Shown: piece by piece, positions 9,306 to 44,170 of the stretch
How the letters are laid out: every line of letters begins with the position of its first letter
How positions within the stretch are numbered: the first letter of the stretch is position 1
Source of the DNA: Nemertoderma westbladi
Taxonomy: Eukaryota > Animalia > Xenacoelomorpha
DNA length: 44,170 bases
Assembly: GCA_032718475.1 (NCBI GenBank)
Contig: JAUCBJ010001909.1
Coordinates: 1-44,170, forward strand
Direction: 5' to 3'
Made by a program: the position numbers and the translations under genes
The notes under the pieces: model-generated
Told to the model about the DNA's origin: nothing
The model's input: the letters and a program-made list of their open reading frames with translations, nothing else
Databases searched by the model: none

Positions 9306-9528
9306 GTCCATTCTACTTAGTATCCCGTATGAGAAAATAACACGAAAATATCAGAATAACACGTTCGTTCCATAGCAAAAAATACAAATCCCAACTCTAA
9401 TAAAATTATTTATTACAAGGGAAAAAACGTAGAACTTTTTTTCAATATTCTCTCGACACTTTATTAACCTCGCTGGGACTCTGGGAAGGCCTCGAGAATA
9501 GTGAAAAAAAGTTATACTTTTTCCCATG

Positions 9529-15100: not shown

Positions 15101-18100
15101 CCAGAAAGGTAAGAGTTATCAGGACCATAAACTCCAACATTGTACTAGTTTCACCAGATTGAATATAGACCAGCGGCGTCTGGCGATTAGATCCCTGGAT
15201 GCTTGTTGGAAGTGCTTGGAAAAAGGACACAAACGTCGAGATTGCCCGAACACACTTAATAAGGGTTGTAACAATTGTGGTAGGTTACATCACCAGTTAT
15301 TACATACAAAACAACATACACCTACAAAGCAGTTTCGTGCTGATCACCCAACATTAGTGTTGAAAAACACCAACACCATGAGACGCAATGTGACATTCAC
15401 AGGTATCGGAACAGACACTATCAGCGAGCAATCAGGTTCTTCAGATGGAGAAACGAGAACTGATACGGTGATTTCCGAAACAGCGAGTGGCCCAAACCCT
15501 AGTATAACTCTGCTAACACAAACTCAGTCAGCAGGTTTTAGTGTGGTGCCGGTGCGTATTCACGGTGAACTTGGCACGAAATGTATATACGCCATACTTG
15601 ATCCAGCGTCCACAAATAGTTACATAGATAAACAAGTTGCTAGCGTTGTTACGGATGTCCAGCAAGGTAAATGTATGGAATATCATATTAGTTCGATACA
15701 TGGGAGACAAGCTGTGCCTGTAACAAAAATCAAAATCACCTTAGACTCTTTGCTTCCAAGACACCTCCATACTCAAGCTGAGAGGGATATGTTACCTTTG
15801 GAAAATCTGACATTCCATGCAATGGAACATTTTATCAACCTTTTAGGCCCGGTCCCAGCTCCATTTCCAGAAGAGCGTGAGTATTTCTGTTCTCTGGGAA
15901 TACCTGAGTGTAAGGTTAATTATCGCAATATAGCTATGCTTATTGGATTAGACCAATTCAATATACATCAAATCTGGGAAACACGTCCAGCTATACCAAC
16001 ACCAGGTAAGCCATATGCTAGTCGTAGTGTAATAGGGTGGTATACTAGAGCACCAATACACCACGATCCTGGTGAAGACGACGGAACTACTGATGAAACT
16101 TATATTTCAAAGGCTAGAGATTATTTTTCGATATTGCCTAGTAACCAAGAATTGTCCTTTACAACATTACAGTGTGACAATGATTCACGTTGTGACAATG
16201 AATCACATTGTGACAATGACACACGTTGTGACAATGACTCGCATTGTGACAATGACACACGTTGTGACAATGACTCACGTTGTGACAATGACACACTTTA
16301 TGACAGTCACTCACAATCTGACAGTGGTTCACAGTCTGACAAGGACTCACAGTCTGATAGTGACTCTAAATTTGACAAGGATTCAAATTCTGATAATGAC
16401 TCACAGTGTGACAATGATTCACAGTATGACAGAGAATTACAGTACAGTGCAGCAGAAAATGACAGTATATTGGACGAAATTTTTAGTGCCTCTGATGACA
16501 CTGTTTCTGATGGTGATCATGATCATGATGGTATGACTTTAGAGTCCAGTCTACAACAATTGAACGAGCCGTATATTGCAGAGATCCTACCCATTTCTAC
16601 AAATTTATTAATACAAACTCGAGTCACTTCCATAGAAACCATTAAAAACCCAGCTTCATGTATAACTGAGCTAGAACAAGCATACGAATTTTTAGATATT
16701 GACAATGAAATGAATAGAAGGGTGATGAAGTGGTTAGAACAGGACACTGTGGAACCGGACAGCTATGACGTAGCCATGTCGGAGAATGAAAGACGGTCAA
16801 TAGAAATTATGGAAAAGACTATTAGACAACTTCCAAATGGACATTATGAAGTTGGAATGCTTTGGCGTGATGATGTACCTAAGTTAATTAATAATAGACC
16901 ATTAGCTCTACGTCGTTTACAATCTATTAGAGAGCGCCTTCTACGCAATCAAGTGGTACATGATCAATATCGTGCCCAAATTGATAATTACATAGAAAAA
17001 GGGTATGCAGTAAAAATGGAGCACCCTGACGTTATCAGTGACCAGACTTACTACCTCCCGCACCACTACGTAACTCACCCCAACAAGCCTGGAAGAGTGA
17101 GAGTAGTATGTGATTGTCAGGTAAAATACCGCGGGATGTCACTAAACTCACAGCTAATGGATGGTCCAAATCTTAATAACTATTTAATAGGAATTCTAAT
17201 GAGATTTCGACAACGGAGCATTGCCTTTACTTGCGATATTGAGGCAATGTTCCATCAAGTGTATGCATTGAAACGAGATACTGACAGTCTTCGGTTTTTG
17301 TGGTATCAGAATAAGGATTTGTCTGGCGAACCCTCTACTTATCAGATGTTGGTGAGGACATTTGGTGTAAGGGATAGTCCAAATGGCGCTCTTTTTGCAT
17401 TAAAACAAACAGCTATACGACAAGCTGATAGTTTTGACAAGGAGATTGTTGATACAGTGAAAAAGGACTTCTATACTGATGATGGCCTTAAGTCATGTGA
17501 TACAGAATGTCGAGCGATTGAGGTAGCACACGGACTTCAAAACTGTCTAGCCAATGGGGGTTTTCACCTTACAAAATTTATCTCTAATTCGACGGCCTTG
17601 ATTGCTTCATTTCCTGAAAAGGATCGTGGGAGCGGAGCGATTGAACTAGAATTCGAACCGATACCAGTTTCGAAGGTTCTTGGGTTGTCATGGGATCCGA
17701 ATAATGACAGTTTCAAAATCCGTGTGAGAATTGAGCCAAATGATGCAACATTAACGAAACGCATCTGTCTGTCAAAGATGAGTCGGTTATTTGATCCGTT
17801 ATGTTTTGTCAGCCCTATCATTTTACAGGCACGTATCGAATTACGTAAAATATGGCAAGCTGGATTAGAATGGGATGAACCAATACACACAGAACACGCT
17901 GATCAGTGGAATAAATGGGAACATCAACTACCCGCACTTGAGACACTAGAATTGCCGAGAGTCTATTTTCCAAAGCAAATAGCGTTTCCTACATTATTAC
18001 AATTACACTGTTTTTGTGATGCTAGTTGCAACGGACTTGGAGTCGTCGCATATTTCCGCAGAGAAACTCATCCCGGGCATTTTGAAACATCATTTGTAAC

Positions 18101-20507
18101 ATCGAAGGCGAAAACTATGCCAAACAAATTTATGACGATACCACGAGCTGAACTTCAAGCAGCTACGATCGCTATTGGAGTTGCAAAATTAATTAAACGC
18201 GAAATCGAAAGTGACATAACTGTGACCTATTGGACAGATGCGACATTAGTGTTAACCTATATAAACCATGATGACATTCAATTCAAAACTTTTGTTGCTA
18301 ACAGACGCGCACAAATTCTAGAATATTCCATTAAAGAAGATTGGAGGCATTGTCCAGGTACAGTCAACCCAGCAGATATCGCCTCAAGGGGGATGATGCC
18401 TCAGGACTTTTGCAAACCCGAAGTGCAGAAATTTTGGTTACGTGGCCCAGAGTTCCTGAGTAAATCCATAGAATTATGGCCCCCATTATTCGATTGTAAG
18501 TTAGGAATTCTTCCAGCAGAGGCAGAAGTTAAGGTTGAGAAAATCCGTAAATCAAGTCCAGAAATTCAAGTTTCATCAGTTCAATCACTAGGAGTTGACA
18601 TGGAGCGGATAGGTGATGACAAATTGGATTTCAATGATCAACCGACAACATTAGTTACGACTCGATCAATGACAAAGGCCAAGTTGGGTCCAGTTATACC
18701 AAACTCCGTCTATCAACAAAAACCAAATGAAGAAGAACTTACTAGGAAGATGGACCATATTGAACTAAAACAAGTGGATCCAACCAATACAAATATAATA
18801 AAGGAGGTAAATATCAGGAATAATGTGCCTGTTTTCAAATCGACATCTCATGAAACAAGTTCTAAGTTGGAAACTCGTAAACCCAGTAGCGAACACCGAA
18901 ATAGTTGTGAGGTGAACAAGTTTCCAGATCGATTTAAACCACCTGAGAGGTCGCAATCAATTGCGAAATCACCAGACGACTCCGCAAGATTTGTTTATGA
19001 TAGAATAATTAATATGACGTCATCATTTATAGATATATGCCGTAAGGTAGCCTGGATAAGACAATGTATCGCTAATCTGCGTGGGCGTGGAGGCCTATCA
19101 AGACATTTGTCTATAGGAGAGACAGATAGAGCAGAGTTCGATATTATTCAACATTACCAGCTCAGACATTTCTTGAGAGAATATCAACTTATCACTGAAA
19201 AGAAGGCTGTGACGTCATCGTCGCTTGTAAAGTGGAGTCCTACTATATATAATGGTCTTATTTGTCATAAATCGAGACTACAAGCCGCTGACATTTCTTA
19301 CAATTTCCTCTACCCAATCATAATACCACCTCACTTTGAATTACAACGTGCTTTGATTTTAGACGCACATATAAAACTGAAACATGCTGGTCGAGCACAC
19401 TGTCTGTCTTTTCTAAGAAATCGTTTTGTTCTTATAAAACCTAGCAAAGCACTGACATCCGTAATGAGTAATTGCATAACTTGTAAAACACTACACACTA
19501 GACTAGAAAAGCAAGAAATGAGCAACCTACCTCTAGCACGTGTGCAAGCACACCAGCCGCCATTTACCAATACTGGCGTCGATTGTTTTGGACCTTTTCA
19601 AGCCAAACGTGGTCGTGTAATGATAAAAAGGTGGGGTGCAATATTTACCTGTACCGCGAGTAGAGCCATACATATTGAACGTGTATCTGATATGACAACT
19701 AATGCTTTTATTTTAGCTCTTCGCAGATTTATAGCGAGACGTGGTTTAGTACGCGCATTCTATTCTGATCGAGGTTCTAACTTCGTTGGTGCAGACAATG
19801 AGTTAAAGCGGGCTTTAAACAGTATAGACTATGACCAGGTAATAACTGAACTGTCACCGAAACACATTGAATGGAACTTTAACGTCACTGACAGTCCATG
19901 GAGAGGAGGTATTTGGGAACGAATGATCCGTTCTATTAAACTCGCTATTCACAAAACCATTCCAATGAATAAAACACTCAATGATGATCAATTAATAACA
20001 TTATTCGCCGAGATCGAATCCGTGCTAAATTCTCGTCCTATAGCCCTAGCTGTCGATAGTGACGATAATGCGATCACATTAACTCCAAATCACCTTTTGA
20101 TGCAGTCACCAGCACCTTTAGTACCTGCTTCAATCCCAGCTGATAGCGACCTGTACAGCACCAAGAGCTGGAAAGTTACTCAGTTACTTGCTAGCAGATT
20201 CTGGGAGATTTGGCAGAAGTTCTATTTACCTTCTATATCAACCCGTACAAGGTGGTATAACAGCACACGTAATTTAAGGGAAGGTGACTTTGTGTTATTA
20301 GCGGAGAAAAATCTAAAGAAACATTACTGGCTAACTGGAATAATTACAAAGGTAAATCCAGACACAGACGGAATAGTTAGAACTGTCACAGTAAAAACCA
20401 TTGACAGACGAGTGATTGACCGACCAGTCCAACAGTTAGTATTGTTGGAAGAGTTTCGAGACAAGACAAGAGCTTATAAAATCTCTACAGTCTCGACATT
20501 GTCTTAA
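12111..20507 (+). CDS. BEL/Pao gag-pol polyprotein, 2798 aa, uninterrupted
   Basis: DUF1759-like gag (PPRFSGDPKHWRTF); three Zn knuckles (CQYC..H..C, CWKCLEKGHKRRDC, CNNCGRLHHQLLH); protease AILDPAS; RT (YYLPHHYV, DIEAMFHQV, FYTDD); Pao RNase H (FCDAS, IPRAELQA, WTDA, NPADIASRG); integrase HHCC plus GVDCFGP / SDRGSNF / WERMIRSIK. Confidence 0.97.
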   Translation: MSIPPNTGPPVTDDYDTADEQSQRLNNTSPDPIVMSDQGKSVDDPAVSSIPDATVQDQTEAMINDEIPDAVSEVSNSIHGPSISKRAGGHMASITRYTNQVSQLLLDESQALHRCTLVTIQDNYNELIRKHVVELESLVVEAKKHGERRTLTQLFEKLKESRANIIRLCEHFHKIRVDKGLQLLDESASQVDPKDDEDEIEQATLNFIDKLTQYLLEQGVILPGLPLPTTASVNVIPQRIGARDILLLGYDVEQAHSKVGGVYSNVSITESQRIAARNLVEQQRQLREEQKRIATDEVLRTQTAAAEAELRMLNLEIAKLDREKVAYKATADAVAEAERINQKRLERDRALKLQRIYLNAERLKRAGIEAEKQANLEARRNEIEAEQRQRVEALEAQRKQDLLEKEQHRIQAEQENLEAIARTRRANSLLDRIDRVASSVRKHNAAQDPDDPVSRLHLLSAFNARFPGDELSTPNPETQAAVNEEGLEQNDVIHVPVRAEPVISVTPYLVKDKTLNLRELELSSSHQPRISLIPNRGEKATRRESKYHNEIKLTAGRVRQHPTDCDYHSQQAGQLSNRGRINLPVICDQSIENFRDQNTYPNGWGYTNRNSQYRPNIDTPVVETKVTMEQLKETLREFTEPVLQRVQEVSDKVARSEDRNAKFNRFQYNTDSMDGEAYTQQTWPGRPHPFQHYNNDSDQGNEKEIRTGKYSKPRKDKTLLRMSTQKPETLETIPVTADMVTEISRWAARQGLPPQKPPRFSGDPKHWRTFKEYIESQIIAKDFTATEKFHYLLQLLDKEPRGLAYSFTGNPRAFVHSWERLSDIYGNKTKMAMSIVEELGNGGPITSPYELLKLADSIQNAIHILPTVGCEGYGDRPDVLKDIIRRLDLRHRQKWRKLESKIEDRGQTLRLSHLYELISREALAELRSNYSEEYLQVERRPVGKPKTTFTPERSKFTFNSVADAISSKPDKKVPAPIGITLERQELASDFRGCQYCFQKGKSYQDHKLQHCTSFTRLNIDQRRLAIRSLDACWKCLEKGHKRRDCPNTLNKGCNNCGRLHHQLLHTKQHTPTKQFRADHPTLVLKNTNTMRRNVTFTGIGTDTISEQSGSSDGETRTDTVISETASGPNPSITLLTQTQSAGFSVVPVRIHGELGTKCIYAILDPASTNSYIDKQVASVVTDVQQGKCMEYHISSIHGRQAVPVTKIKITLDSLLPRHLHTQAERDMLPLENLTFHAMEHFINLLGPVPAPFPEEREYFCSLGIPECKVNYRNIAMLIGLDQFNIHQIWETRPAIPTPGKPYASRSVIGWYTRAPIHHDPGEDDGTTDETYISKARDYFSILPSNQELSFTTLQCDNDSRCDNESHCDNDTRCDNDSHCDNDTRCDNDSRCDNDTLYDSHSQSDSGSQSDKDSQSDSDSKFDKDSNSDNDSQCDNDSQYDRELQYSAAENDSILDEIFSASDDTVSDGDHDHDGMTLESSLQQLNEPYIAEILPISTNLLIQTRVTSIETIKNPASCITELEQAYEFLDIDNEMNRRVMKWLEQDTVEPDSYDVAMSENERRSIEIMEKTIRQLPNGHYEVGMLWRDDVPKLINNRPLALRRLQSIRERLLRNQVVHDQYRAQIDNYIEKGYAVKMEHPDVISDQTYYLPHHYVTHPNKPGRVRVVCDCQVKYRGMSLNSQLMDGPNLNNYLIGILMRFRQRSIAFTCDIEAMFHQVYALKRDTDSLRFLWYQNKDLSGEPSTYQMLVRTFGVRDSPNGALFALKQTAIRQADSFDKEIVDTVKKDFYTDDGLKSCDTECRAIEVAHGLQNCLANGGFHLTKFISNSTALIASFPEKDRGSGAIELEFEPIPVSKVLGLSWDPNNDSFKIRVRIEPNDATLTKRICLSKMSRLFDPLCFVSPIILQARIELRKIWQAGLEWDEPIHTEHADQWNKWEHQLPALETLELPRVYFPKQIAFPTLLQLHCFCDASCNGLGVVAYFRRETHPGHFETSFVTSKAKTMPNKFMTIPRAELQAATIAIGVAKLIKREIESDITVTYWTDATLVLTYINHDDIQFKTFVANRRAQILEYSIKEDWRHCPGTVNPADIASRGMMPQDFCKPEVQKFWLRGPEFLSKSIELWPPLFDCKLGILPAEAEVKVEKIRKSSPEIQVSSVQSLGVDMERIGDDKLDFNDQPTTLVTTRSMTKAKLGPVIPNSVYQQKPNEEELTRKMDHIELKQVDPTNTNIIKEVNIRNNVPVFKSTSHETSSKLETRKPSSEHRNSCEVNKFPDRFKPPERSQSIAKSPDDSARFVYDRIINMTSSFIDICRKVAWIRQCIANLRGRGGLSRHLSIGETDRAEFDIIQHYQLRHFLREYQLITEKKAVTSSSLVKWSPTIYNGLICHKSRLQAADISYNFLYPIIIPPHFELQRALILDAHIKLKHAGRAHCLSFLRNRFVLIKPSKALTSVMSNCITCKTLHTRLEKQEMSNLPLARVQAHQPPFTNTGVDCFGPFQAKRGRVMIKRWGAIFTCTASRAIHIERVSDMTTNAFILALRRFIARRGLVRAFYSDRGSNFVGADNELKRALNSIDYDQVITELSPKHIEWNFNVTDSPWRGGIWERMIRSIKLAIHKTIPMNKTLNDDQLITLFAEIESVLNSRPIALAVDSDDNAITLTPNHLLMQSPAPLVPASIPADSDLYSTKSWKVTQLLASRFWEIWQKFYLPSISTRTRWYNSTRNLREGDFVLLAEKNLKKHYWLTGIITKVNPDTDGIVRTVTVKTIDRRVIDRPVQQLVLLEEFRDKTRAYKISTVSTLS
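16173..16442 (+). repeat. In-frame 18-bp tandem repeat (15 units) encoding (CDNDxR/H)n then (SDxDSQ)n between protease and RT
   Basis: TGTGACAATGAyTCACGT units decaying into TCTGACAGTGACTCACAG units with the 18-bp register kept. Confidence 0.9.
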
Positions 20508-22205
20508 AATATAAACGTTTAGGGCCTATCGAAATTCCATTGTTAATATGAACTCATTTCGTTCATAGGAGCGGATTATTGCCATTGAATGGAATTTCGA
20601 ACTAAGTTTCATTGTAGGCCTACGAAATAAAGTAAGAGTTGTAAATAATTATATTTCCTTTCACACATTGGATTGTCTTATGTAAAATATAAAAATAAGT
20701 CGTAATATTATAACATGGGAATTTCCAAAGGAGACCATAATGACGAGTTGTGTAAATTTTGTTTTTAGAAATAATAAAAAATAATAATCGAGAAGGACCT
20801 GTCTCACACGTACATTGGTACTACTGTCCAGCTGTCCTGGGGAGAGCATATCGTCTAGCGTACGTTGGACTAGCAAATCCCAGAATCAATTTATTGACGA
20901 ATTTCCCATTTTTCCGACAAACTTTGTGACAAATTAATTGACATCATTTATATTTTTTTTAAATGCAAAAATGTTTGTCTGTCCATTTAATTATAACAAT
21001 TTGTTATTTGGAGCGCAAATATTTTCAAAATTTAGACAGCTAGAAGGCATTGACTGAGCATGGCGGGTGTGGACCCTAGATGCTCTGGTGAACTCAAAGC
21101 CTTTCCTACCTAGACTAATCAGACTCTTTTAAGTTTCACAGAAGCTATAGAAGACTATGGTGCATTGACAATTATTTCGTTACCGCTACGCTACTACCGT
21201 TACGATCGTTAGAAAACCACAACCAACCAATCTATTGGGCGCAGAAGAGGTCTAAGGTTCTCACTTTCTGGAATGTTTCCTTCTGGTGGCCCAACCTTCC
21301 GCAGTACGTATGACGGATAAAGTTGAACATGTGACCGACGTGTCACATTTACGCGTTAAACCAGGATTAGGGTACGGTATCATAACCAGAGATGACCAGC
21401 GTATGCAATTCCAAATCCATGCCGTGAAGTTTGTCGTGATTGGCCCCGTCGAGGTCCAGTTAATATTCCGCTCAAACAGGACATTCCGAGACAATTTGTT
21501 AATAACGAAACTCGGCATACTTTCAACTAATTTACAATGCCCTTGATAATCCTGAAGACCACTATACAAGATTCGTTCTGTATGTGGTATCCCGTGACCT
21601 ATGATATCGATGCGCGCGCGTTTATTACAACTTATAATAATACTTATAATTATTTGTATTATAGTTTATTTTCAATCCATGAATTTACCTATGTTCTGAC
21701 CTCTAGGTAATTAATTGTATTTTATGATTATTTTAGTTTTGCTCGCGAGGGTGAATTATAACTAAGATGTAATTATAAATCTAACAATCTGAATTTTTCC
21801 CATATTTTTAACAATATTATGTAAGCAAAATGCATTGCTAATGAATGTAATTAACAAGAGTTATGGCATACTATTTCAACCAGTTTTGCAATATTTAACT
21901 ATTAATTAGTACATTAACCGAGGTGATTTGTAAACCTATGAGTGTATTAATAATTATATGATAATTGAATCGAAGTTTAAGTTAGTTTTATTCGATATTT
22001 TCTGCTCTATGATTCGATTGTTTACCTATATAATAATTGCTAACACTGCAATGGAAGTGTATTTGTGTATATTATGTTCACTCGAAGGAAGTGTTATGTA
22101 AGATTTTATACTTGTTTATTTCGATATTAGTTAGTTTATTTGTAAGGTGATACGGTGAACACGGTACTGGAGGTTATTCGTTGTTATAGTAACACGACGT
22201 AACCT

Positions 22206-22212
22206 GGAGCGG
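22206..22212 (+). promoter_or_regulatory. Short polypurine-tract-like plus-strand primer site (GGAGCGG)
   Basis: Purine-rich run abutting the TGT of the 3' LTR; short and interrupted by a C. Confidence 0.55.
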
Positions 22213-23961
22213 TGTATTGATTTTGTGTCGGTACTTAATTTGCTATTAACAATAATTGCTTAATAATAGTAGAATTTTTAGTAAATGGAAATATTTGCCA
22301 TGATTTATATTATCTTACTTATGAATAGGAAGAGAAGTATATTTTTAAGAAACACCGAAGGATAATTTTATTTTTATCGGTATTAAGCCGTTCCTTTACT
22401 TTCGTGGCTCGCCCCACCATGTTATCTCAGATTTAATAAAATATTCAGTGCAATTTCTATATTGACCGCTGGAAGGCGTTGCCTTTGCTCTATTGATGGG
22501 ACCTAAACTCGCACTGATTCATGTCTTTAGAGGAGAAATACTAATATGTTAGGACAGGACCGGCAGATAACAATGTTATGATCAAATTTATTGTTTGGCC
22601 CTTCATTGTTGGATGTTTGCCACCTTTGCTTCACTAACATATGAATGCATAGGTTGCTAAGGGATACATACTAGTTAAGCTTAAATGTGATTCGATATAA
22701 CGTGATTAGGTGTCAACGTTGCGGTATAAAAGGGCCCACCCCCTCTTTTGCAATAAATTAGTAAATTAGTAAATTAGTAAATTAGTAAATTAGTAAATTA
22801 GTAAATTAAAGTATTCACAAATAGAATTTACAATCTTATATTACCTGTATTTCGTTCGTGTTTGGAAGTAATTATTATGTGAATTTAAGTATCAGATTAT
22901 ACTATCTTGAGTTCTAACTTCAATTAGATCTTATTTTCAACAATGTTATCGGTTAAAACATTTACAACATGATGAGCTAAGCGTCATTTACGTGGGCCGG
23001 AAGGTTGGGAAACATGGATACAAGCGGCTGAACAACCATAGTCGCACGGATACTAATAGTCAAGGGAAGTCAGGTTAGAGTATCATTACGAGTAAATGGG
23101 AGAAACATTTGTCAGGTGTAGGTCATCAACTTTAGCTGTCTTACATTTCACCAGCCTTACAAAATTTAGGATACCCGTATGAAAATTGAACAATCCGCAC
23201 AGCGAAGCAAAAACACGCACAACGCAACAGCAGAAAATAAGCCAATAGTTATTTATAGGTAAATAATTCTATACCTCAGTTTAGCGTAGCCTTGGCAAGA
23301 TATTATAGGAGCTCAATTCGTGGTAGCTATGCGTGAGCCGACATTTGATTGGTTGTTGGGTTCCAGGCAGCATCAGTTGAGTTCCTTTGTTACTGTGCAG
23401 GGTGGTGTAGAATTAATTTGTTTACTTATACATAATTTTGTGTTCTGGAATGTCATATTCTGGAATGTTGGAATATATTCTGCTGTGCATGACTGACAGA
23501 CTGTTAGGGATTATTCTATATTAGGTGGAAATTAGTTATTTGCCACTATACAATTAACTTGCGCTATGGACAATTTAGGCACTGTATCCTAGCTGACAAG
23601 GACAATTAGACAATTCTTGCCGAGATATTTGCAATTTTTAGAATTACGGTAAGTCTTATGTAAATTTAGAAAAACAGTTTGGCGTGAATTTGTTATCCAT
23701 TTATTGTTACTGTTACATATTCAGCAATTGCTGTTCATATGGGAAATGTTTTTATAAAAACCTGAAATATTTATTGAACTCGAAATTATCAATAGATTAT
23801 CCTAGAAAATACACAGTCTGGGGAGGCTGTTTAGTAGATCAGATAAGGACCCGCTATAGCGGTAAATTATATTCTTGTGGAGATCTCGACCCGGGAATCG
23901 TTGATTAGTGTTTCACATATAGATCTGCCTGGTCGGGGATTCTTATGCAGATAGTTTTACA
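22213..23961 (+). repeat. 3' LTR (1749 bp)
   Basis: Copy of the 5' LTR. Differences noticed by eye: one extra TTAGTAAA unit and C10862 vs T23554. Confidence 0.96.
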
Positions 23962-24026
23962 CCATGTAATAATTATAATTTATTATAATATTGATTTAGG
24001 TATTATAGTTCTCAATCTCTTTTTAC

Positions 24027-27678: not shown

Positions 27679-28453
27679 CTGAAAACAATGCTATTTATCC
27701 GAGAAGGGATTTACGCGAGAAGGCGATTCTAATAGAGTTGAAACAGAGACCTGATTTTCTTAATCGCGGTGAACCAGAGACCTACCCGGAGAATTATTTT
27801 GGAAAATACCGGAGACCAGAGCCAGAGACTTTGATTATTTTTGTACTTATAATTTGGTTTTGGCGCAAACAGACCGTACATATGAACTGAGATCTATTTA
27901 TGGTTGAATTACAGTAAATAAAAGTAATAAAAATAAGGTACTAAGTGTGTTTTGTTCACAACCCCCCTCGAATTTTTTATACTGGCTAGTTTTTGTTACT
28001 TTTTTTAAAAAATGTTCTAGAACATTTAATCTATTCATTTAATATAAAGATTTTGTTCTACAACAAATATTTTTTTTCTAGAACAAATATTTTTTGTTCT
28101 GTACTTGTATACTTAAAACTTGGTCTACATACTTGGTCATTTACGAATATAGTTAGTTCACAGGTGCAGTACTCTATTCGACCCTATTGCAAGTCTCGTT
28201 ACGCTCGTTCTCTTTCATTTGGTCGCCGGAATATGTAGCCTACAACAAGGTCAAAAGAGCTCTACATGTAAACTTTATGGTTTATGGCTCAAATTAAGCA
28301 CCCTTATCCTTAAATAAGATAAGAACCCTCTTTAGGTGGAAAATTTACTTAAAATGAAACGCACCTTAAATGAAACCAAACTGTTCGCCTAGAGTTTGCG
28401 TTTGGGTTAATTCCCAACAAAGTTTCGTCTTAGTGATAGTAAGTAGGACTCAC

Positions 28454-28800
28454 CTATGATCTTGTTGCTTTTTCTCCTCGGCTGTCAGTTTATCGATTAA
28501 AGCTACGCATCTCTCTTTCTCTTTCTTCTTCTTACTGGAGCTGAAGTCCACAGCGTTTTCAGCCTCTTTTATTGCCGTCTGGAGTTTGAGTACCTCCTTC
28601 GCGTACGCCTCTACCGGTACACTTAGATCGTACATGGACAGACTCCAGAAGGTGGCGTAGAACAGCGGGCTGATGTCGTCCCAGATCCGGAGTTGGTGCA
28701 GGTTGGTGGCCACGTCCACTACCGGCAGCATCACGGACTCGTACGCGCGGATGTACAGCTGTTGGGTGGTCGGGATCTGAGACAGAGACTCGGTCTGGGC
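28454..28800 (-). CDS. THOC2: THOC2 coding exon 7
   Basis: WDDISPLFYATFWSLSMYDL...KKKKEKERC; ctccAG acceptor at 28801-28802, GTGAGT donor in phase 2 matching exon 8. Confidence 0.92.
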
Positions 28801-30188
28801 CTGGAGGAGGGCATGTATCAATGGGGTGTGTCAACAGCATAAAACTAATATTTTTTCGACTAGTTATAAAGCTATTATTATATAAAAATAAATCTTAGTG
28901 TTCTTAAATGCAACTTTCAAAATAAACTTTCCTACTACTACGGTATTTGCGAAAAATATCGAGACTTTGAAAACATCGCACGTGTAAAAATATCGAGTGT
29001 TTATTGTTATATCAAGAATTTGTATTTTTGAGTTTTGAGATTTTTGTTGCTGCGCGATTAATGTAGTCGCAGTGCTACTAACAATAATCCTATCGGCTGA
29101 CCTGGACAATAAACTATTACCGCCAGGGTTTATGCGGTGGCTTTAATATACAGTCAGTATGGCACCAAATCGATGGGGAGTTTGAGAAATTGAAAAAGAT
29201 GCGGAAAAAGATTGAAAAAAAAAGGTTTCGTACTGGCGAATAACGCATTCCTATTCTCAAAATTGCTAACAATCAATCTCTCCCTCAGAGAGAATTCCTG
29301 CAATAACCTGCTCCCTCTAGTACAGAGAAGAGACAGAGTCTACAAGGGTCCCGTCAGTCTACGTAATGTAGACGGCTTTAGAAGGAAGGAGATAGTCGAA
29401 AGATTGCAGTTTTTACTTGGAAGGAAATTTATTCAGAGATCCTCAGGTCGTTATTATTTATATAATTTATAATATTATATTCAAATTTAGACCGTAAACG
29501 ATATATATACTAATTACTAATACATATTATTACTAATATTTTTTTAGATTTCCCCTTAAACGTGTTTTGTAGCGCTTATTTCTCTATCATAACTTATACT
29601 AATTCGTTTATTGTTTTGGTTAGATTCAGCCTTCCTGTAACCTGGGCTTTTAGTGAAAACCTGGTAAATTTTTCACCAACTTGGGGTAAACTGCAAAGTG
29701 AAATATAACAGCAGAACATCTGGTACACTTCACATTCTGCCGTCCCAAGTCAAAACAATCCCGGTTGTCGCATAAACATTCTACTTCCAGCTCGTAGAAA
29801 ATAATTGGCTATATTACAATATAGACGATCTATAAAAATAGTTGTTAATTCAGATTGGTTGTCGATACCAGCTGTTGCGACGCCAGCTATAAAATTCCAA
29901 GAAAGATAGAAGATAGGAGGTACCAGGAGTAACCAATTTAATAAGAAAATCGTATTTTATAGATTCATTTGTGTAAGTGGTGTAGCATGTGGATGATTTC
30001 TGTTTGAGCTTTAGTTTATTGTTATGGTTACAAAACATGCCACTGAAAGCTGCTCCTTTCCATTAATTGATCAGTTAATATTGAGTGAGATCAGATATTA
30101 TCAGATTTACGTCTAGTTCCCCTTCTCTGTCCCATAATAACCAAATATAACAGATTCAACTAAATAATTAACTCACAATAATACGGAC

Positions 30189-30941
30189 TTTTTCCTCGCG
30201 GCACAGATGCTGAAACTGCTGCTGCACTAGATGGGAGTACATGGGTCGGCAAAGATGGAAGGCGGCGTCGGGGGAGATGAAACAATGGGAGCAAAGCTGG
30301 TCCAGGGGTGGGAGACGCTGGGTGTAATCGTCGATACCGAGTTGGTTGGACAGGAAGTCCCCGAACTGAACCAGAGTGTCCTGACACATATCGTACAGAC
30401 GACCCACAAGTTTAAGATGTCTATCGGCGTCTCTGTAGACTACGTGGTCCCGTTGCTGGGCCAACAGGAGCATCAAAGGCACTGCTAAGTTATTCTCTAC
30501 TAAAGAGTCTTTGAGGCGAGTTGAAGATTTCTTTGTGTTGCGTATTTGTCCGAAGTATCCCCCCTCCGCTCGTAGACACTCCCCCCCGCCGAGCGCGGCC
30601 AGCTGATCCGAGGTCATCTCCTCGGAGATCTCGATGCCGGACATCTTGCAGACCACGTCGCGCACGATGATGAGGTCGCTCGATTTCCCGGTTTTGATCT
30701 GATTGGCCACGTACTGGAGGAGGCCGCCGAGGTCGATGTTGTATTTGCGGAAGGCCGCAGCGCAGAAGGCCGATAGACTCTGCAGCCACTCGGAGATGCT
30801 CATCTGGCCGAACTTTGTGCGCTCCTTGGCGGGATTTGCGAGCTGCTCGAGGATGCAGAAGGAGAGAACGTCGTAGGAGAGGCTGGTGAGGAACTTAAGG
30901 GAGTCGACGACTGGAAGAATAAAGTTGTCGAACTTCTGAAC
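30189..30941 (-). CDS. THOC2: THOC2 coding exon 6 (alternative in-frame donor would extend it to 30177)
   Basis: [26 protein letters not shown]...WLQSLSAFC...[15 protein letters not shown]; tttAG acceptor at 30942-30943. Confidence 0.92.
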
Positions 30942-32152
30942 CTAAAGAATAAAATAAAATTATAAACATCCACAACAACAACAACTTTAAACATAACTAA
31001 ATTTCGTGGTTTGGAAGTCAATTAATTAACCTTATGTTAACCATAGAACTTTATCCTAATTCTAAATTAAACTCTTTATTTTAATAAAGTAAACAAAGTA
31101 GTTTATTTCACTGTTGAACAAAAAGCACTCATCATCCTGTGGCTTTATCAACTGTTCTGAAATATTATAAACTATATTTATTCTCACTGTTAACAAAGAC
31201 AGTTAGACTATTTAATCAACCTTCGTAAATATATTGATATTTTGTGGAAACATAATAAATTAATTTGCACCCATTTTTAAAAGTCATATTGTTCTCTGAG
31301 AAAAGAGCTTTCGAATGAGCCCAAAACGAACTTCTTACGATCACTAGAACTGGAGATTACACATTTTAAAGATCTCCAATGACCGATAAGTCTATTCCGT
31401 GTAATCCCGCAAAGACCACGGAGTCGCTTATTCGAGTCCCGTCTTTATTCCGGAGACTTGAAGTTGTCTTATAAACTGATCAGTAGGTCCAATAATCATA
31501 AAAAAATACCTTATCAATTAAAATTTTGTGCTCTTTCTCGTTGAGACATCCAATTGGCACCACTGAGCACAGAAAATGGCAGAAATTGAAAGCAAACCCC
31601 AAACTTCATCGCCTTTACCGATATCGCGATATATCGGAGCCAGTATCTTCTATCCCAGATATCTCGAAAACTAAGCAAGATATGGGAAAACGGTTTCCAT
31701 ATTTGGATTCAACATGAAATTCTGCATCAGATTGGATATGTTTCAAAAATTCAATTTTTTGGTCAGAAAATGCGTTACCCCCCCCCCCCTAAGTTAAGAT
31801 TTATAAAGTAAAGTATCGCAAAGAAAATCATATTTTATATAGACTTATAAGTTTGCTAACAAAAGCAAAGCTTATTAAATAAATAACCAACACCCCCCCC
31901 CCCCCCCCCCCCCAACCTGTTTAGTGTTCAAAATACATGAACAATCAATAAATGGATAGATCGTTTTTCGTTTGCTTAAGTAAAATGACGTCATCATTAT
32001 ACACAAATAATTGTAAAATATATAGTAAGCTCAAGTTTTTATTTATAATGATAATGAATGCACGAAAAATGTGAAAAACAGTTGAGGCGCCGTATCCGTT
32101 CGGACACTGTAACACCCCGTCACTAGGTTGCAGTCAGTTATTATAGTGTAGT

Positions 32153-32600
32153 TGTAATATGCTTGGCTTGTAATGTGCTTGGCCTGTAATGTGCTTCGCT
32201 TGTAATGTGCTTGGCTTGTAATGTGCTTGGCTTGTAATGTGCTTCGCTTGTAATGTGCTTGGCTTGTAATGTGCTTCGCTTGTAATGTGCTTGGCTTGTA
32301 ATGTGCTTCGCTTGTAATGTGCTTGGCTTGTAATGTGCTTGGCCTGTAATGTGCTTGGCTTGTAATGTGTTTGGCTTGTAATGTGCTTGGCCTGTAATGT
32401 GCTTGGCTTGTAATGTGCTTGGCTTGTAATGTTCTTGGCTTGTAATGTGCTTGGCCTGTAATGTGCTTGGCCTGTAATGTGCTTGGCTTGTAATGTGCTT
32501 GGCTTGTAATGTGCTTGGCTTGTAATGTGCTTGGCCTGTAATGTGCTTGGCTTGTAATGTGCTTGGCTTGTAATGTGCTTGGCTTGTAATGTGCTTGGCT
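32153..32600. repeat. 16-bp minisatellite TGTAATGTGCTTGGCT, 28 copies, in THOC2 intron 5
   Basis: Tandem units with GGCC/CGCT variants. Confidence 0.95.
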
Positions 32601-32767
32601 CATCGTGTTAGTTTGGATTGATATTACTAACTAAATTCTAAATTTCGATTTAATTATTTATTTATAACAAAATAATAAAAAGGTGTAATAAAATTTTTAA
32701 TATATTTGCGTTTTGTTAACTGGATAATAGAATTAATCAAGAATTTATAATTCTACGGTTTTCCTAC

Positions 32768-33154
32768 CTGCGATAGAACGTAGTCGAACACTATAGGAGG
32801 GTTGGAATGGGAGAGTTTCCCTAGAAGTCGTCCGGACTGCTTCACGTTGTCCTTGGTAATCCGTTTCATTATATACTTGGTGCGTTCGGTTACCGCCGCC
32901 CGTTTCTTTACGAGGAATATGTGCGTCGAGTAGGATTGGTTCTTCCATAAACCGTAGAGTCGGTAACGACAGCGGTAGGGGAAGTGCCGGATCAGTTGCC
33001 AGAGTTCCTCGGAGAGGAACGCGTTCCCGTCCAGAAGGGAGAGAGAGGGGAGTAGGACCTCGTCCAGGAGGACCATGATGGAGCGGAACACATTGTCGTC
33101 AATATCGTTGGGCAGATGAAGGGCCTTGACAGCTGACTGACAAACTCGAGTTAC
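32768..33154 (-). CDS. THOC2: THOC2 coding exon 5
   Basis: VLLPSLSLLDGNAFLSEELW...YRLYGLWK...KYIMKRITKDNVKQSGRLLGKLSHSNP; aAG acceptor at 33155-33156, GTAGGA donor. Confidence 0.93.
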
Positions 33155-33563
33155 CTTTATAAATAATTTATAAACCAAAACTTCTAAGAGAAATGAAATT
33201 CACTAACTGCATTCAACGTTATAACTATTTATATTTTTTGTGTGAACAGTCTTTCAGTGTTTGAGCCTGGAGTGTATTTATGTAGCGAGCGAGCGCAGCG
33301 AGGGCCGTTTACATAAACACACGAGGGTCATATACAAGTATTATGTGAATTCCATTATCACTATTTTCTTGATTTAGATTTTATACAGTTATATTACAAC
33401 TTAAATAATATTACAAAAAAATTTAAATAGTTAAAATGTGATCTACATAATATAGACCTTAATCGATAGATAACATGTTCTAGAACATTTAAAAATAGTA
33501 GCAAAAACTAGCTAGTTTAAAAAAATTTATGTTCTTAAATAAAATTTTCTAGAACAAAAAATG

Positions 33564-35502: not shown

Positions 35503-35570
35503 CTGAAACAGTTGGAGGCGACGAAGAATAAATTAAAATATTTTAAATAAGGTCACGATAAGACGTTTTT

Positions 35571-36191
35571 CCCACTAGACACACTTCTGGTGGTCGTATG
35601 AGGACGATTTATGGCTTGTTAGAAGCGCAATCATTGATTTAGTCGGGGTAGGTGAGACTAAAACTCGAAAAAGTTTATATTTCTGAGGGGCATGCCATTT
35701 TTTCATGCCATTTTTTCATAATTTACACGATTTGCGATGTTATCGGTTTTTATTTGAGCTATGTGACTTATGTGACTGGATATTGACGTTGACGTTGATG
35801 TGACAGCCTACATTGTCCATTACAAACCGAGACTTTGTGTTCATCGCTATGCATTCTTTATCAAGTCGCAAAGCGCCACTAAAAACCTGCCGAAAATCTA
35901 CATTATGGCAACTTTTATTTACTTTCTTACACTTTTTAGTCTCTCCTCCCCCCACTGAATCGATTATTGCGCTTCGAATAAGCTATAAATCGTCCTCATG
36001 ATTTTTATTTGGGGATTTTGGGGTCATTATGAAACAGGATGATAAGGGCAACCAGATTTAAGGGTATCAACTTATCCCCAAAATTACAACGATATTGGAA
36101 GGCGATAGATAACCATACAGCTCTTTGGTGAACTAAAGCTAATTATTGGGCAGGAATACAGTACCGGTACTCCAGAAGTGTGTCTAGTGGG
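35571..36191. mobile_element. MITE with perfect 20-bp TIRs (CCCACTAGACACACTTCTGG), containing a nested foldback element at 35598-35999
   Basis: Outer TIRs 35571-35590 and 36172-36191; inner imperfect inverted repeats ATGAGGACGATTTAT... / ...ATAAATCGTCCTCAT extending about 80 bp. No clean TSD. Confidence 0.75.
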
Positions 36192-36537
36192 ATAACTAAG
36201 ATCGTATTATTTATTACCGGTACCATTAAAAATAATGGTAACAGTTCCGTAGCACTAAATTTGTACAGCATAAATCATTGTTACCATGGCAATATAACAG
36301 AGTTCTAGAACAAAATATAAATATTATACCGGTACACTATTCTAGAACATAAATAAAATAAAAAATACAATGTTCTAGAACATACGGAACTCTTGCCAAA
36401 ATAATTACTGATAATAAATAATTAATAAAAAACTGAATTTACAAGTTTTTGTTGCAAAATTGTCAAAAATTTATAGAAAATAAAAAATAGATTTCCATCG
36501 ATTATTGATTTTGGTCGAACAAATAATTATTACCTAC

Positions 36538-37603: not shown

Positions 37604-38118
37604 CCCGTGTAACAGAGAATTTTCACTCCCCATACAAAATCACCCCCCCCCCCCCGGTTATAATTCCCTAGTTATTCTCACTCCCGGGGTGTATTTTCCC
37701 TAGTGTATTTTAACCCCCTCGCCCTTAGGGGAATACTCACCACCCCTACCGGTAGCTACATTTATCAATTTTCCCTCTACAGCTCTACCCAAAATATTGG
37801 AATTTAAAATATCATGGGGGTAAGAAAACACTGGAGGGGGGTTAAATTTAAGAATACGCTGAGGGGGGTTAAATTTAAGAATACACTCAGGGGGGTTAAA
37901 TTTCACAAAAAAATCACCCAGAGTAGTTTCACCGCCGGTTAAAATACACTAGGCCTACAGGCCTAGTGAATTCTAGCCGGGGGGTGAAAATACACTAGTG
38001 CTGTAGTGAATTCTAGCCGGGGGGTGAAAATACACTAGTGCTGTAGTGAATTCTAGCCGGGGGGTGAAAATACACAAGTGAATTTTAACCGGGGGGTGGA
38101 AATTCTCTGCTACACCGG
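37604..38118. mobile_element. MITE with imperfect TIRs and an internal 40-bp tandem repeat (37964 to about 38097)
   Basis: CCCGTGTAACAGAGAATTTTCAC ... GTGGAAATTCTCTGCTACACCGG; internal TAGTGAATTCTAGCCGGGGGGTGAAAATACACTAGTGCTG x3. Confidence 0.7.
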
Positions 38119-38254
38119 GAAATTATCCAGTACCGTGATACAGTGCTAGAGTGTCCTGCTATGTGTGTGAGGTATCGGCATATTGAATAGTTAGGCCATA
38201 TATAACATATATATATAAAATATACATAAAATAAACATAACGAAGAAAACTTAC

Positions 38255-38762
38255 CATAACCTTCGTTCTCTTCCCTCAAAAGGTTAAATTTCTGTTGTCT
38301 ATAAAACAGTTTAGTTTTCAACTTGACATATTTCTGACTGTAGGTCTGCTGACTACGAATCAAACCTACTGATTCTAAAGTTTCCATATCTAGTCTCTCC
38401 TTGAGAAACGCCTCTGGTAGACAATGAAGACTCAGTCTCACCAGGTCTAGCAGCGCATCCCGACGAGACTTATTTTGACTCGCCATAGACAACGTCTCAA
38501 TGTCTACAATTGATATAACATCAACAATTAGTGATGCGAGTTCTGTTTTCAATTGCCCGACTTCACCTAATGCTTTAACAACGCTATCTATGTTAACAGA
38601 TCCTTCTAGAGCAAGGAATACTAAATCAAAGACGGCTCTTTTTAGTGATTTCTTTGTAATCGAAGTGAGTACCATGTCTGTATCTTCATTCTCAAGTTTG
38701 CGACAATAGCGAACAAAATCAGACCGCCCTCCATGGTCCCAAAGTTTCGCAATATCAGTCAT
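38255..38762 (-). CDS. THOC2: THOC2 coding exon 1 (ATG at 38762-38760)
   Basis: MTDIAKLWDHGGRSDF...LKERLDMETLESVGLI...KTKLFYRQQKFNLLREENEGY is the THOC2 N-terminal signature; GTAAGT donor. The ten exons sum to 3999 nt, which is in frame. Confidence 0.93.
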
Positions 38763-39001
38763 TGTGGTTTTTACCTGTCCTCCCACTTTACCTTCTTCTT
38801 GTTGAGTCTTTTATGTTGTCGTCTATATGCACACATACCCTGAGAGCTGAAACAGATACAGAGATACCGGTATTACGGTCTGGTGATTAGATATGAAATG
38901 ATATTGCAGTTTGACAGTTTCAGGTCAGCAGGTTGTATTGTAAAGTCTACTCGCTACTGAGCTAACGTCTGACCGTACAGCCGTACCCGTACCAGGCTGC
39001 A

Positions 39002-39406: not shown

Positions 39407-40097
39407 TTAAATTAATTAAATATTCCTTATTCCTTTATCCTTACAGTAGGCAGTCAGACAGTACACCAGTAGGTGTTACACTTCTTTCATAATTATTTCA
39501 TTTGTCACTCTATATAATGCTAATCCAATTAAGCTCCCTTATCTTGCAATATCCTGTCCAGGTTGCAGGTTAGGCAGTTACGAGGTCATAACTGTCATAA
39601 GCAGATAAGGGCTGAAGGAGTAATGGGCTGGGAGACCAGACAATTATAAGCAGATAAGATACATTTATATAAGGAATATTTAATTTAATTTATTTCATAT
39701 ATGACTGTATGAGGAATATTTAATTTATTGAAGGAGTTTGTAGATTTTGGAATGAAATTCAGTCAAGTGAAATGCCCCGATCAGGAAATATGGTAAAATG
39801 GCCCGATCGGGCAAGTATCCTTTCCCGATCGAGAAAGTTTGAGCATTTTTACACTTGCAGACTTGCGCATTCAGTAACTATTTTGCGCAGCTTTACACGA
39901 CATCTAGCAGAACGATCAGGATTTACTTTATTGTATTATTTTACTTTGATGAAAAATAATTGTTCAGCTGGCAATTACAATATTTCCCGATCAGGCAATT
40001 TTGAAATAGTTAACTTTCCCAATCCAGCAATCTCAGTAAGTTAAGTACCTACGGCCGTACGGTAGGTACTTCAAACCGGTACTGAATTTTAGTAGAT

Positions 40098-41024
40098 ATG
40101 GAGGATATGGATTCGTTGGAGGCTATTGTTGGAGTCGGAGAAAGTCACGAGGAGGGTAATTCCCGAGCATTAACATTAACATTAACAGGGGCAATTGTCG
40201 AAATTCTAAATGTTGTATCGGAATCAATAGTACCGGAACCACCTTGCGAAATTGATACTGACAACGATGAAGTTCTAATTCCGGCTTGTAAGTTACACAC
40301 CATACAAAAACTATCCGACGCGGAAGTACGGGAGATTGGGGATAAAAAGGAGAAAGAACATTTGTCCAAATTGAGATGTAGAGTAAATCAAGAACGATCT
40401 ACATGTAAAGAAAATAGAATTGGCTCTAAATCCAGTAATATTGGTCAATCGGAGCATCATCATGTTGGCAAAATGCCAATGGGAAAATTTGAAAATCAAC
40501 AGCTCCATCAGTTCGTGTCAAAATTTAAATCTGTGGAGGAGAAGCGAATAGAACGGTTTACTGCACTTTCTCCCGTGGGCGATGGGATGATAACGGTTTT
40601 AGTGAGACAGAACCGTAAGAACTCGAATGAAAGTACACTGGAAGTACTAGGCGGTAAGGGGAGCAACAAAGATTGCCAAAAGTTGCAAGAAATAGTCAAA
40701 TCACTCGAGAATGGCACCATACTGGTAACTTCCCCTGACACATCAACCGGATCAAGCAGCAGCAGTGGCGGTACACCAGAATTACAACATCTTGATAATC
40801 TTTCCCTGGAAAAGGAAGTAGTAGAAATGCCTCAACGAGAGTTAGTGACGGATCGTAAATGCGCAACGTGTGGTGTAATTTATGATAGCCCAGAGGACAA
40901 GCGCTTCAATTCGGTTTGGATTGGTTGCCAAAGATGCGAATACTGGTTGCATGAGAAATGCACCGGGTGGTTTGGGTTAACCCCAGCTGTTAGCTTATCC
41001 AATTCCGCTAACACAAACCCATAG
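40098..41024 (+). pseudogene. 308-aa ORF ending in an incomplete PHD-type zinc finger; probably a transposase C-terminal remnant or a terminal exon
   Basis: CATC...WIGCQRCEYWLHEKC (40860-40961) is C4-H-C of a PHD finger; the final CxxC is missing. No catalytic DDE core recognised. Confidence 0.5.
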
Positions 41025-41221
41025 AGTGAGCCATAAAGCAATATTGGGAGCACGAGGTTGATTACCAATCAACCTCGTGTCAGCCCAGTAAACGGGGACA
41101 ATAGGCCCCAAAGGAGACACAAACAATAAGGGTCAGGGGCCAAACCCCTAACAGAGAGAGAACAACAGGGGCAACGGGAAACACACCAGGGAAGGTGAAA
41201 GGGCGAGAAGTGGGATATTAG

Positions 41222-41308
41222 CCAATGGGGGGACAGCATCGACTAGGTACAGTAATATGGCCAACTGTGCAGTACATATATTACCTGTTGGTGCTTCCCT
41301 ATTCAGTT
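41222..41308 (+). promoter_or_regulatory. LTR promoter: CCAAT (41222), TATA-like CATATATT (about 41275-41282), initiator TCAGTT with +1 at A41305
   Basis: Canonical spacing of about -83, -28 and +1. Confidence 0.6.
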
Positions 41309-41615
41309 TAGTTTACTCAGTCAGATCAGTAGGGTGGAACGGGGACTTCTGTCACCGTCCGCTACCGCCATCATACTTATCTACCGGTAACCGTGTCATC
41401 CATTTCAACTGTGCTATATCAGACTATTATACCTTTATACATATTACCGAACATCAGAACTCTTTTACCTTTCACACACGGCGGGGACGCGTAGATAGAA
41501 AACCCAACGGATAAACCGGGATCCGTAGATCCCGTCACAGTGACAGAAGTCCCCGTTCCACCCTACTGATCTGACTGAGTAAACTAAACTTTCATCAAAA
41601 GATTCATCAATCTCA

Positions 41616-44170
41616 TTGAATCAAAATAATAACCCAAATTCGAACCTACAAAATAATTTAAATAACGCGATTACGCAAAATAATCCAAATAATTTAAATA
41701 ATGATCCAAGCCCGAATTTACAAAATAACTCAGATAGCGTAGTCGCGCAGAATAATACAAATGGTTTCGTTCCAAGCGAGCAAATCAATTCTGTTTCCAA
41801 TATGGGTGCTATTAACGTAAACACGTCGGACGTGTATAGCCAGGCAGATGAGGGCCTGGTAGGCCACGTAGTTGGTAGGCAGGGAGCAGAGGGCCTGGTA
41901 GGCCATGTAGTTGGTAGGCAGGGAGCAGAGGGCCTGGTAGGCCACGTAGTTGGTAGGCAGGGAGTAGAGGGCCTGGAAGGCCACGCAATAGCAGGAGGAG
42001 AAGCGGGGGTGAATAGACCCGACCGCGGTAGGGTTGATGTGTCGACTAGAGAGGTATATAGTAGCGGGGTGAGAGGTAGCGAAGTAAAATGTAGCGAGTG
42101 GGGGGGGGGGGGGGGGGGGGGGGGCTACAAGGGCCCCACAACGGAAAGTTAGCGGCGAGTGGGGGGGGGGGGCTACGAGGGCCCCACAACAGAGAGTTAG
42201 CGGCGAGAGGGGGGGGCAGAGAGGGTCCCACAGCCGTCAGCGGACAATGCGCGGGCCGAAATAGGTAAACCGCAACAACCGGCGACGGAAAGTAATAGGG
42301 GGATTGCGGATATCCCCAGCGGCGTGCGACCGAGCAGAGAGAGACGGGTTGACGTCGCGAGAGGGCGGACGAAGCGTCGAGCCCGATCAGAGGAAGGAAG
42401 AAGAACAGTGGGGTTTAACCGGGAGGTCGACGAGAGATCTCACGAGCGGGAATATTCCACTGATAGGAGAAGAAAGGAAGACAGTAGTAGAAGTATCGCC
42501 GCGAACGATAGAAGAGCAAGGACGGATAGCGAGCCGTCGATAGTCGAGATGAGAACGGAGAGTCAGTGGGGTCGGACTCCGGGAGATTGCCGTCGCCCCG
42601 GAGAGATGCGACCCGGCGAGGCGCACTACGCACAGAGAGAGGGGTACGCGATGTACCGGTACGAAGATGAGAACAGTAGAGAGGGAGGTCAAAGAGAAAC
42701 TTTCCGACGGAATATACCTACCGATCGAGAACACGGTAGCCGCGGGGAGGATTATTCGAGAAGAATAAACTTCGATCCCGAACAACACATGCAGACTGTA
42801 GGACATACTGTAGGCCTTACTGCACATACCGTAGGCCATACTGAGAGAGGCAATGTAGGCGATAGGATAGCGTGGACAACGGGATTAAACCCGGAAGTCG
42901 CGGAATACATACCGGCGGGTAGGCCAGAAGCTGATAGGCCTATACCGGTACCAGCACAGCAGTATGACTACAGCATGCAGGGACATAACATATACCCAGG
43001 GGAGGGGGGAATTATTGCGGATAGGTGCATGGGCCCCAACATATTAACATCAACCCCAGTACCAAACATACCGGTGGGGGGGGGGGACAGGGTGACATTC
43101 CCCCATCACAATATCAACAATATACCCCGATAGGAGCAAGAACAACGAGACCCTTGGATGAGAATAAGTCGTGTGACACAGAAATATGGAGGGGGCCGCT
43201 ACCCCCGATGACATACCCAAGTCAGAGAAGATCGAGAAATAGGACGGACGAACCGCACCAGACAGGGGAAACTATACAGCACCCGTCGAATCCATTGGAA
43301 GCGCAGGCGATGGGGATGGCCACGTTGATCGATGCGTTGAAAACGAGGATCGAGCTACCACCAGTGGAACCATTCAAATTCGATGGAAGTAGGCCGGAAG
43401 AATATCTACAGTTTCGGCGCATGTATAGTAACGAAATACTAACAAAAAACTTGACGCAGGCGGAGTGCCTAAAGTATCTACAAGTGTACACGGGAGGCCC
43501 AGCATACGACATCGTGAGGCAATATCAAGGAATAGAGGGCGGCTTCACGACAGCATGGCGGGCACTGGATAGGGAATACGGGCACCCGGCCAAGATCATC
43601 AGGCAGACGCTGAGGGGCATAACATCGGGTGGCCTGCAGGATAATCCCGTTAGCATTAAGACGTTCGCTAACAAAGTCGAAAAGGCGCTAATCGTGCTGA
43701 AGACGCTAGACGCGCCGTACGAGCTCAATGCGTCCAACAACATCACCACGATAGCGCAGGCACTACCAAACTGGCTGCGCAACAAGTGGAGAATAATCGC
43801 CTTCTCTACTCGAGATAAGAAGGGTGCGGAACCGGGTTTGGAAGAAATGTCAAACTTCTTAAACTACGAGGCTGAACTAATAACTGACCCAGTCTATAGC
43901 GAAGACAGCCTGGGAAAGGGACCGAAGACAGACTACCATAGACCGAAACCAGAGCACAACACATCGAACGCATTACCGAAACTTAGGCAATCATTGCCAT
44001 ATGCAGCGACGCAGGGGACTGCAAGTCCACAGCTAGCCGAGAATAAGACAACATCATGGAACGGACAGGGAAATAATAATAACACGAATAAACATAACCC
44101 CAGTACGTCCAATCGGCAAAACCCAAACAATAAGAATAGTAGGGACTTTGGCACGAACGCAACTGCGATA
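41616..44170 (+). CDS. BEL/Pao gag of the second element, frameshifted at three G homopolymers, incomplete at the window end
   Basis: The open frame from about 43085 to the end reads ELPPVEPFKFDGSRPEEYLQFRRMY...LKYLQVYTGGPA...AWRALDREYG...LPNWLRNKW...DPVYS (DUF1759-like gag). Upstream ORFs 41616-42152 and 42324-43133 join it across G runs. Includes a 39-bp repeat (EGLVGHVVGRQGA x3.5, about 41850-41985). Confidence 0.8.

Follow-up and report, generated by a model that had tools for sequence, protein, structure and literature searches.

How does a BEL/Pao retrotransposon begin reverse transcription when the position of its primer-binding site (PBS) is taken up by a long complement of its own long terminal repeat (LTR)? 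The question is raised by an element, here called element B, near the end of a 44,170-nt stretch of Nemertoderma westbladi DNA (contig JAUCBJ010001909.1; hereafter the window), in which positions 41305-41355 (arm 1) and 41540-41590 (arm 2) are exact reverse complements at 51/51 positions, with mismatches directly outside (41304/41591) and inside (41356/41539) that end the pairing on both sides. A first-pass annotation of the sequence had pointed out this self-complementarity and had placed arm 2 in the PBS position without the TGG that starts a tRNA-type PBS. Both observations hold, TGG being absent throughout 41351-41761. The two arms form the longest exact inverted repeat in the window, the next being 35 nt, and shuffling the LTR of element B 3000 times gave a complement of more than 11 nt at the PBS position in 0/3000 cases. 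The predicted RNA fold of 41305-41600 reaches -132 kcal/mol (z -14.9), and the predicted duplex of the arms, which would lie on the predicted capped RNA end, is put at -100 kcal/mol. ARAGORN finds zero tRNA genes within the window, and thus no self-encoded tRNA primer, while an Rfam search of 40500-42500 gave two matches, both at chance level. We lean, with some reserve, towards reading the repeat as a fossil of self-priming, left behind when the RNA primer of the element was copied too far in this one copy or a small sub-lineage.

The 5' LTR of element B (40988-41539, plus strand, TGT...ACA, 552 bp) was delimited from assembly depth and from the geometry of related elements. Its start was set at the TGT at 40988 because summed contig depth steps from 0-103 before to 781-119,074 after this point (at 40987-41027), where coverage goes from that of a single copy to several hundred or thousand times as much, and because contigs of run X5 have loose ends before 40988. 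For the end, the first-pass annotation had offered the ACA at 41539 or at 41545; the former is most likely, since it puts a GT at the very start of the PBS (offset 0), where one is also found in the relatives L018, L074, L079, L084, and L099, and the paired stretch ends with AC, as theirs do, with 41545 as the alternative. Directly before this end lies a predicted 7-bp U5 hairpin (41517-41534). The 3' LTR and the target duplication fall beyond the window, and pol lies beyond 44170. The Gag region of this copy is split into three plus-strand frames, namely, a low-complexity N-terminal frame (41583-42152), a second frame (42201-43133), and a capsid-region frame (43025-44170) that holds DUF1759 (E 2.3e-11) and continues past the window edge. 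This domain, along with a best match to the fetched BEL/Pao polyproteins at E 7e-27, supports the assignment of element B to BEL/Pao, as had been claimed from the start. Its exact place among the relatives is left unfixed, because Gag is 22-31% identical to the relative set and pol is outside the window; to the Gag of element A, a second BEL/Pao family in the window, it is 24% identical (E 5e-12). A search for longer proteins with the Gag of element B gave a match in none of 1415 candidates, which is weak evidence. The family is both high-copy and diverse. No GTAAG donor occurs in its LTR, and element B would be an intron-less form like element A, L079, and L032. The insertion interrupts a low-copy ORF (40086-41024, with 40086-40987 ahead of the LTR, plus strand) that ends in a PHD-finger-like motif (weak domain match, E 0.019) and is possibly a transposon-derived gene.

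According to the ICTV, the Belpaoviridae carry an 18-nt PBS for tRNA-Arg or tRNA-Gly, and their replication is called poorly understood (PMC8742986). Element B is like this family (genus Semotivirus) in its DUF1759 Gag and TGT..ACA LTR, and element A also in its gag-pol order, LTR pair, and 5-bp duplication, whereas the 18-nt tRNA PBS is missing in both, no TGG following either LTR. We would count this absence against the generalization, or against the fit of these elements to it, and not against a kinship that is based on proteins. Element A (9529-23961) is young and unbroken and lies in an intron of the host gene THOC2, on the opposite strand. Its 1.74-kb LTRs (9529-11269 and 22213-23961, plus strand) are 99.5% identical and are flanked by a 5-bp target duplication (9524-9528 and 23962-23966), and its single gag-pol frame of 2804 codons (12093-20507, plus strand) contains DUF1759, Peptidase_A17, Integrase_H2C2 (weak), and DUF5641, which fits the BEL/Pao gag-pol order. 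The PBS position of element A (11270-11282) is complementary, from the first post-LTR base onwards, to 13 nt inside the LTR (10486-10498) that form a candidate self-primer. Only 7/3000 shuffles reach 13 nt, and among 881 leader positions of the element only one other does so. A splice-built primer was also considered for element A and dropped in favor of the contiguous 13 nt, its best split giving 7 nt. Two further features of this element are a second 13-nt LTR complement, in which 11295-11307 pairs with 11104-11116, and a polyprotein with about 750 residues ahead of DUF1759 and six-residue repeat units (CDNDSR-like) between protease and RT.

Relatives were retrieved through element A and not through element B, using as query an alignment of the RT-RNase H of element A with 41 of 120 listed homologues. 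This gave 101 loci, 80 from metagenomes (the best 80 of 564) and 21 from contigs of metagenome-assembled genomes (MAGs), while viral contigs gave no BEL/Pao loci. The 5'-LTR end could be set in 21/101, where a second copy of the LTR ends within the contig, and the other 80 were dropped; in L055, L074, and L089, the LTR ends were shifted by hand (by 1, 1, and 5 nt) before the search. A complement could be contiguous or split by any GT..AG intron, and was taken as positive when at most 10/200 shuffles matched it. By this measure, 15/21 readable relatives carry a significant self-complement, of which 13 are firm and two doubtful (L051 has a TGG at offset 1 and a weak donor, and the 3' LTR of L089 is cut short). 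The complements are 9-15 nt long, with 15 nt as the longest split and 12 nt as the longest contiguous one; 0/21 exceed 15 nt, and the matches listed from a blastn self-comparison of all 101 include no long inverted repeat in a PBS position. Significant complements are lacking in the remaining 6/21 (L012, L018, L044, L067, L071, and L084), with L018 (15/200 shuffles) and L071 (17/200) borderline. GTAAG donors are used in 9/14 split solutions as against 31/1175 GT sites overall (2.6%; P 1e-11, the loci not being independent), the acceptors in these nine follow pyrimidine tracts, and the nine loci represent seven groups at 70% RT identity. The RT tree behind this grouping is a quick one with element A on a long branch, and was used only to group near-identical loci. 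Between related families, the paired letters differ while the pairing is kept. One relative, L044, has a canonical tRNA-Met PBS (405-420; motif for comparison from PMC3587641) and short LTRs of 171 bp, and the quick tree places it outside the main group with self-complements. Priming from the element's own RNA, which the first-pass annotation had proposed from element B, gains support from the 13 nt of element A and from the relatives, and at the level of the BEL/Pao lineage we hold it to be very probable. That an animal BEL/Pao clade has given up tRNA priming, with the host spliceosome mostly assembling the primer, also seems likely to us. Two observations on the loci themselves may be recorded here. 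L035 and L036, on one contig, show a BEL/Pao unit in exact tandem repetition (6138 nt), which may be a circular one-LTR form, a tandem array, or an assembly artefact. L081-L101, whose BEL/Pao pol matches come from bacterial and archaeal MAG contigs and in several cases have an LTR pair, are most likely host DNA that was wrongly binned.

Self-priming is known from Tf1, whose primer consists of the first 11 nt of its own mRNA and is released by RNase H. For the Tf1/sushi group of Ty3/gypsy chromoviruses, it is treated in the available text of PMC4600332, PMC10085805, and PMC11042837. As far as the first two of these go, element B is like Tf1, Tf2, Tj1, and the wider group in having a PBS right after the 5' LTR that pairs with the element's own LTR RNA, with no tRNA and with a neighboring U5 hairpin. 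It is not a member of the group, whose proteins are those of Ty3/gypsy chromoviruses, whereas the Gag here is of the BEL/Pao kind; moreover, unlike in Tf1, the usual pairing here seems to be internal, 9-15 nt long, and intron-split in relatives, while this copy has 51 nt. Near the PBS of element B, where the three-duplex "pretzel" of Tf1 was sought, fold prediction gives only the U5 hairpin and a 2-3-bp extension. Tf1 cDNA is reported, in the available part of PMC11042837, to end 3' with a DNA copy of the full PBS. Self-priming has also been predicted for plant Tcn1 (gypsy) and for TAR, Houba, and Osr-1 (copia) in the accessible text of PMC6317226. These are plant elements of other superfamilies, and that text describes no intron-built or 51-nt form; its criterion is an LTR complement of 10 nt or more that starts 0-5 nt after the LTR, against which element B has 51 nt and element A 13 nt. 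In the searchable text of three BEL/Pao surveys (PMC554778, PMC3118150, PMC6238403), the term "tRNA" is absent and "primer" is absent or used only for PCR primers, and the available portions of PMC3601003 and PMC8220671 hold nothing on BEL/Pao priming. We found no report of self-priming in BEL/Pao in the literature; subscription journals, Repbase reports, and supplements may contain one.

What sets this copy apart is the length of its repeat and the place where it stops. Arm 1 opens at the A of a TCAGTT (41303-41308), a predicted initiator whose TCAGT occurs three times in the LTR, 28-30 nt downstream of a TATA-like stretch (41275-41283). The first-pass annotation had described it as an initiator 28 nt below the TATA-like box. 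Its position stands, but other readings than "initiator" are possible, as TCAG at 41303-41306 resembles a splice acceptor more strongly than any other site in the LTR and could be one. Two X5 contigs with different upstream sequence have an A-run about 24-30 nt upstream of the site matching 41305 (agreement 0.73), a weak hint that points the same way as the promoter reading. Because the copy ends on the A of one TCAGT in three, at this distance below a TATA-like stretch, its template would have been the 5' end of a transcript.

Other copies of the family can be followed in assembled contigs of four DNA runs, including X1, X2, X3, and X5, from three studies, which were compared over 40700-41900; X1 and X3 are one sample, and the best-matching run may be the window's own source. 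In X2, one contig is identical to 41216-41339 at a depth of 1596, against about 33 for a single copy (about 48x), and covers the opening 35 nt of arm 1 (41305-41339) without a break. If a 51-nt arm 2 were common, the assembly graph should branch at this point, and the unbroken contig, going by the way contigs are constructed, therefore argues against it. Among the contigs listed, three from X2 match the window up to 41548 and then diverge, so that 41540-41548 would be the core PBS common to other copies. They still contain the 7-nt word found at 41557-41563 of arm 2, shifted by 3 nt, and pairing in this variant may thus exceed 9 nt. Contigs of X1, X2, and X3 depart from the window before 41619, and none of the contigs listed crosses the 41590/41591 junction in either state; the junction pattern also had 0 matches in metagenome and viral contigs. 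Depth over the outer part of arm 2 (bin 41561-41601) is 0 in X5, with 114 and 11 in the flanking bins, and a local low in X2, with 630 against 24,644 and 2,470. At 10,954 in X1, 3,398 in X3, and 630 in X2, it is well above single copy, which may come from arm-1 contigs placed on arm 2. By its depth, the stretch that separates the arms belongs to the ordinary high-copy LTR, and the depth profile lends no support to a MITE or to both arms lying inside the LTR, readings that the first-pass annotation had raised against its own proposal. Taken together, a length of 51 nt is probably not typical of the family, because other copies diverge after the first 9 nt of arm 2 and because a selected frame behind it lacks a start codon; the data lean against a norm without settling it.

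This frame, beginning at 41583, runs for 73 codons without a stop and has its earliest ATG at 41802, and its upstream in-frame stop sits within arm 2 (230/5000 shuffles leave any frame open in this region). Forty of 92 family differences were listed, 29 of them in this frame. The 22 listed for 41657-41801 all lie upstream of the first ATG; 14/22 are third-position and synonymous in frame 41583, with 0 stops, compared with 3 and 4 synonymous in the other two frames. Judging by this pattern, the frame is under selection though it has no start codon. Of 13 relatives that have a long frame, 10 carry its ATG at most 80 nt from the LTR end, so that a 51-nt overwrite could remove a start codon. On the simplest reading, the leader and probably also the start codon of Gag would have been lost when arm 2 was written over them; alternatively, Gag of element B may start at a non-AUG codon.

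The repeat as a fossil would be explained as follows. Transcription is predicted to begin at 41305, and a short PBS (at least 41540-41548) would pair, beside the U5 hairpin, with a stretch ending at 41355, where the candidate primer 3' end is ..AC as in relatives. The element's RNase H would cut after 41355, by analogy with Tf1, and the capped 51-nt fragment would prime the minus strand. Plus-strand synthesis, which would usually keep the short PBS only, would once have run on along the attached RNA as far as its first base, and the over-copied strand would have rejoined the template at 41591, overwriting what lay between. The usual primer would be an internal pairing of 9-15 nt on a longer 5' fragment, completed in many relatives by splicing of an LTR intron. 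That an over-copy of this kind is the source of the 51-nt length we judge fairly probable.

The same arms would also be expected if family B, or an active sub-family, routinely primed with its whole 51-nt capped 5' end and recopied arm 2 in each cycle, within a wider animal clade that is not tRNA-primed and whose primer is mostly assembled by the spliceosome. In favor of this, the 51/51 match stops precisely at the predicted initiator; further support comes from a promoter and first 35 nt of arm 1 that are identical to the type at about 48x single-copy depth, the depth of 630-10,954 in the outer arm-2 bin of three runs, and the further 7-nt word of the X2 variant. Against it stand the unbranched X2 contig and the zero depth in X5, and a -100 kcal/mol duplex at a capped RNA end should impede scanning and invite RNAi. 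A primer of 45-51 nt with the PBS recopied every cycle had been the proposal of the first-pass annotation. Its self-priming part is supported, but routine use of so long a primer is less likely than an over-copy that happened once or in a minor sub-lineage, because relatives pair over 9-15 nt with none of the 21 above 15, other copies diverge after 41548, and the selected Gag frame has no start and a stop before it, inside arm 2; overall, we think it unlikely.

A template switch could also have produced arm 2, by a jump onto the plus-sense 5' end of a co-packaged or spliced RNA through a short self-complementary PBS, with the stop at 41305 marking either the RNA end or the AG end of an exon plus microhomology. 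The sequence product would be the same, and the acceptor-like 41303-41306 keeps this account alive, 41306 being the strongest such site in the LTR and 41249 a possible donor whose exon ends in AG. However, the match extends into no upstream exon, and no splice-split extension of the arm 2 match was found beyond 41590; in either form, we regard the switch as improbable. As it still requires a self-complementary PBS, it would alter the reading of the fossil only, and self-priming would stay. Another view is that the element is primed by a tRNA 3' end or tRNA half, the repeat being a local inversion or a small mobile insert unrelated to priming. The ICTV description of Belpaoviridae as tRNA-primed (PMC8742986) and the tRNA-Met PBS of L044 are in its favor. 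Yet the stretch around arm 2 has no TGG, arm 2 opens right at the LTR end and shows the same GT/AC geometry as the relatives, the first 9 nt of arm 2 are common to other copies and the sequence between the arms is ordinary LTR, and element A and most relatives show a self-complement instead, all of which make this view very improbable.

If the self-priming reading is true, priming of the Tf1 type extends to a third LTR superfamily, and the internal, often splice-completed pairing ties reverse transcription to RNA processing. Such elements would, we infer, also be out of reach of silencing by tRNA fragments. This copy gives both a predicted 5' end (41305) and a predicted 3' end (41355) of the primer, which goes beyond what short PBS matches give. 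A self-primed PBS would also explain how LTR annotation that is based on the PBS can miss such elements.

The remainder of the window holds exons of the host gene THOC2 on the minus strand (6564-7328, 30168-30941, and 38085-38810; domains Tho2, Thoc2, and THOC2_N). Its start codon appears near 38760, which places element B ahead of the THOC2 coding sequence. Units of 44 nt and 56 nt, 97-100% identical, are repeated in tandem from 24121 to about 27000 and over 2919-3917, and a perfect 35-bp palindrome with a 1-nt loop is found at 8135-8205. Imperfect inverted repeats at 35570-36192, 27973-33524, and 37647-38103 resemble the ends of non-autonomous DNA transposons.
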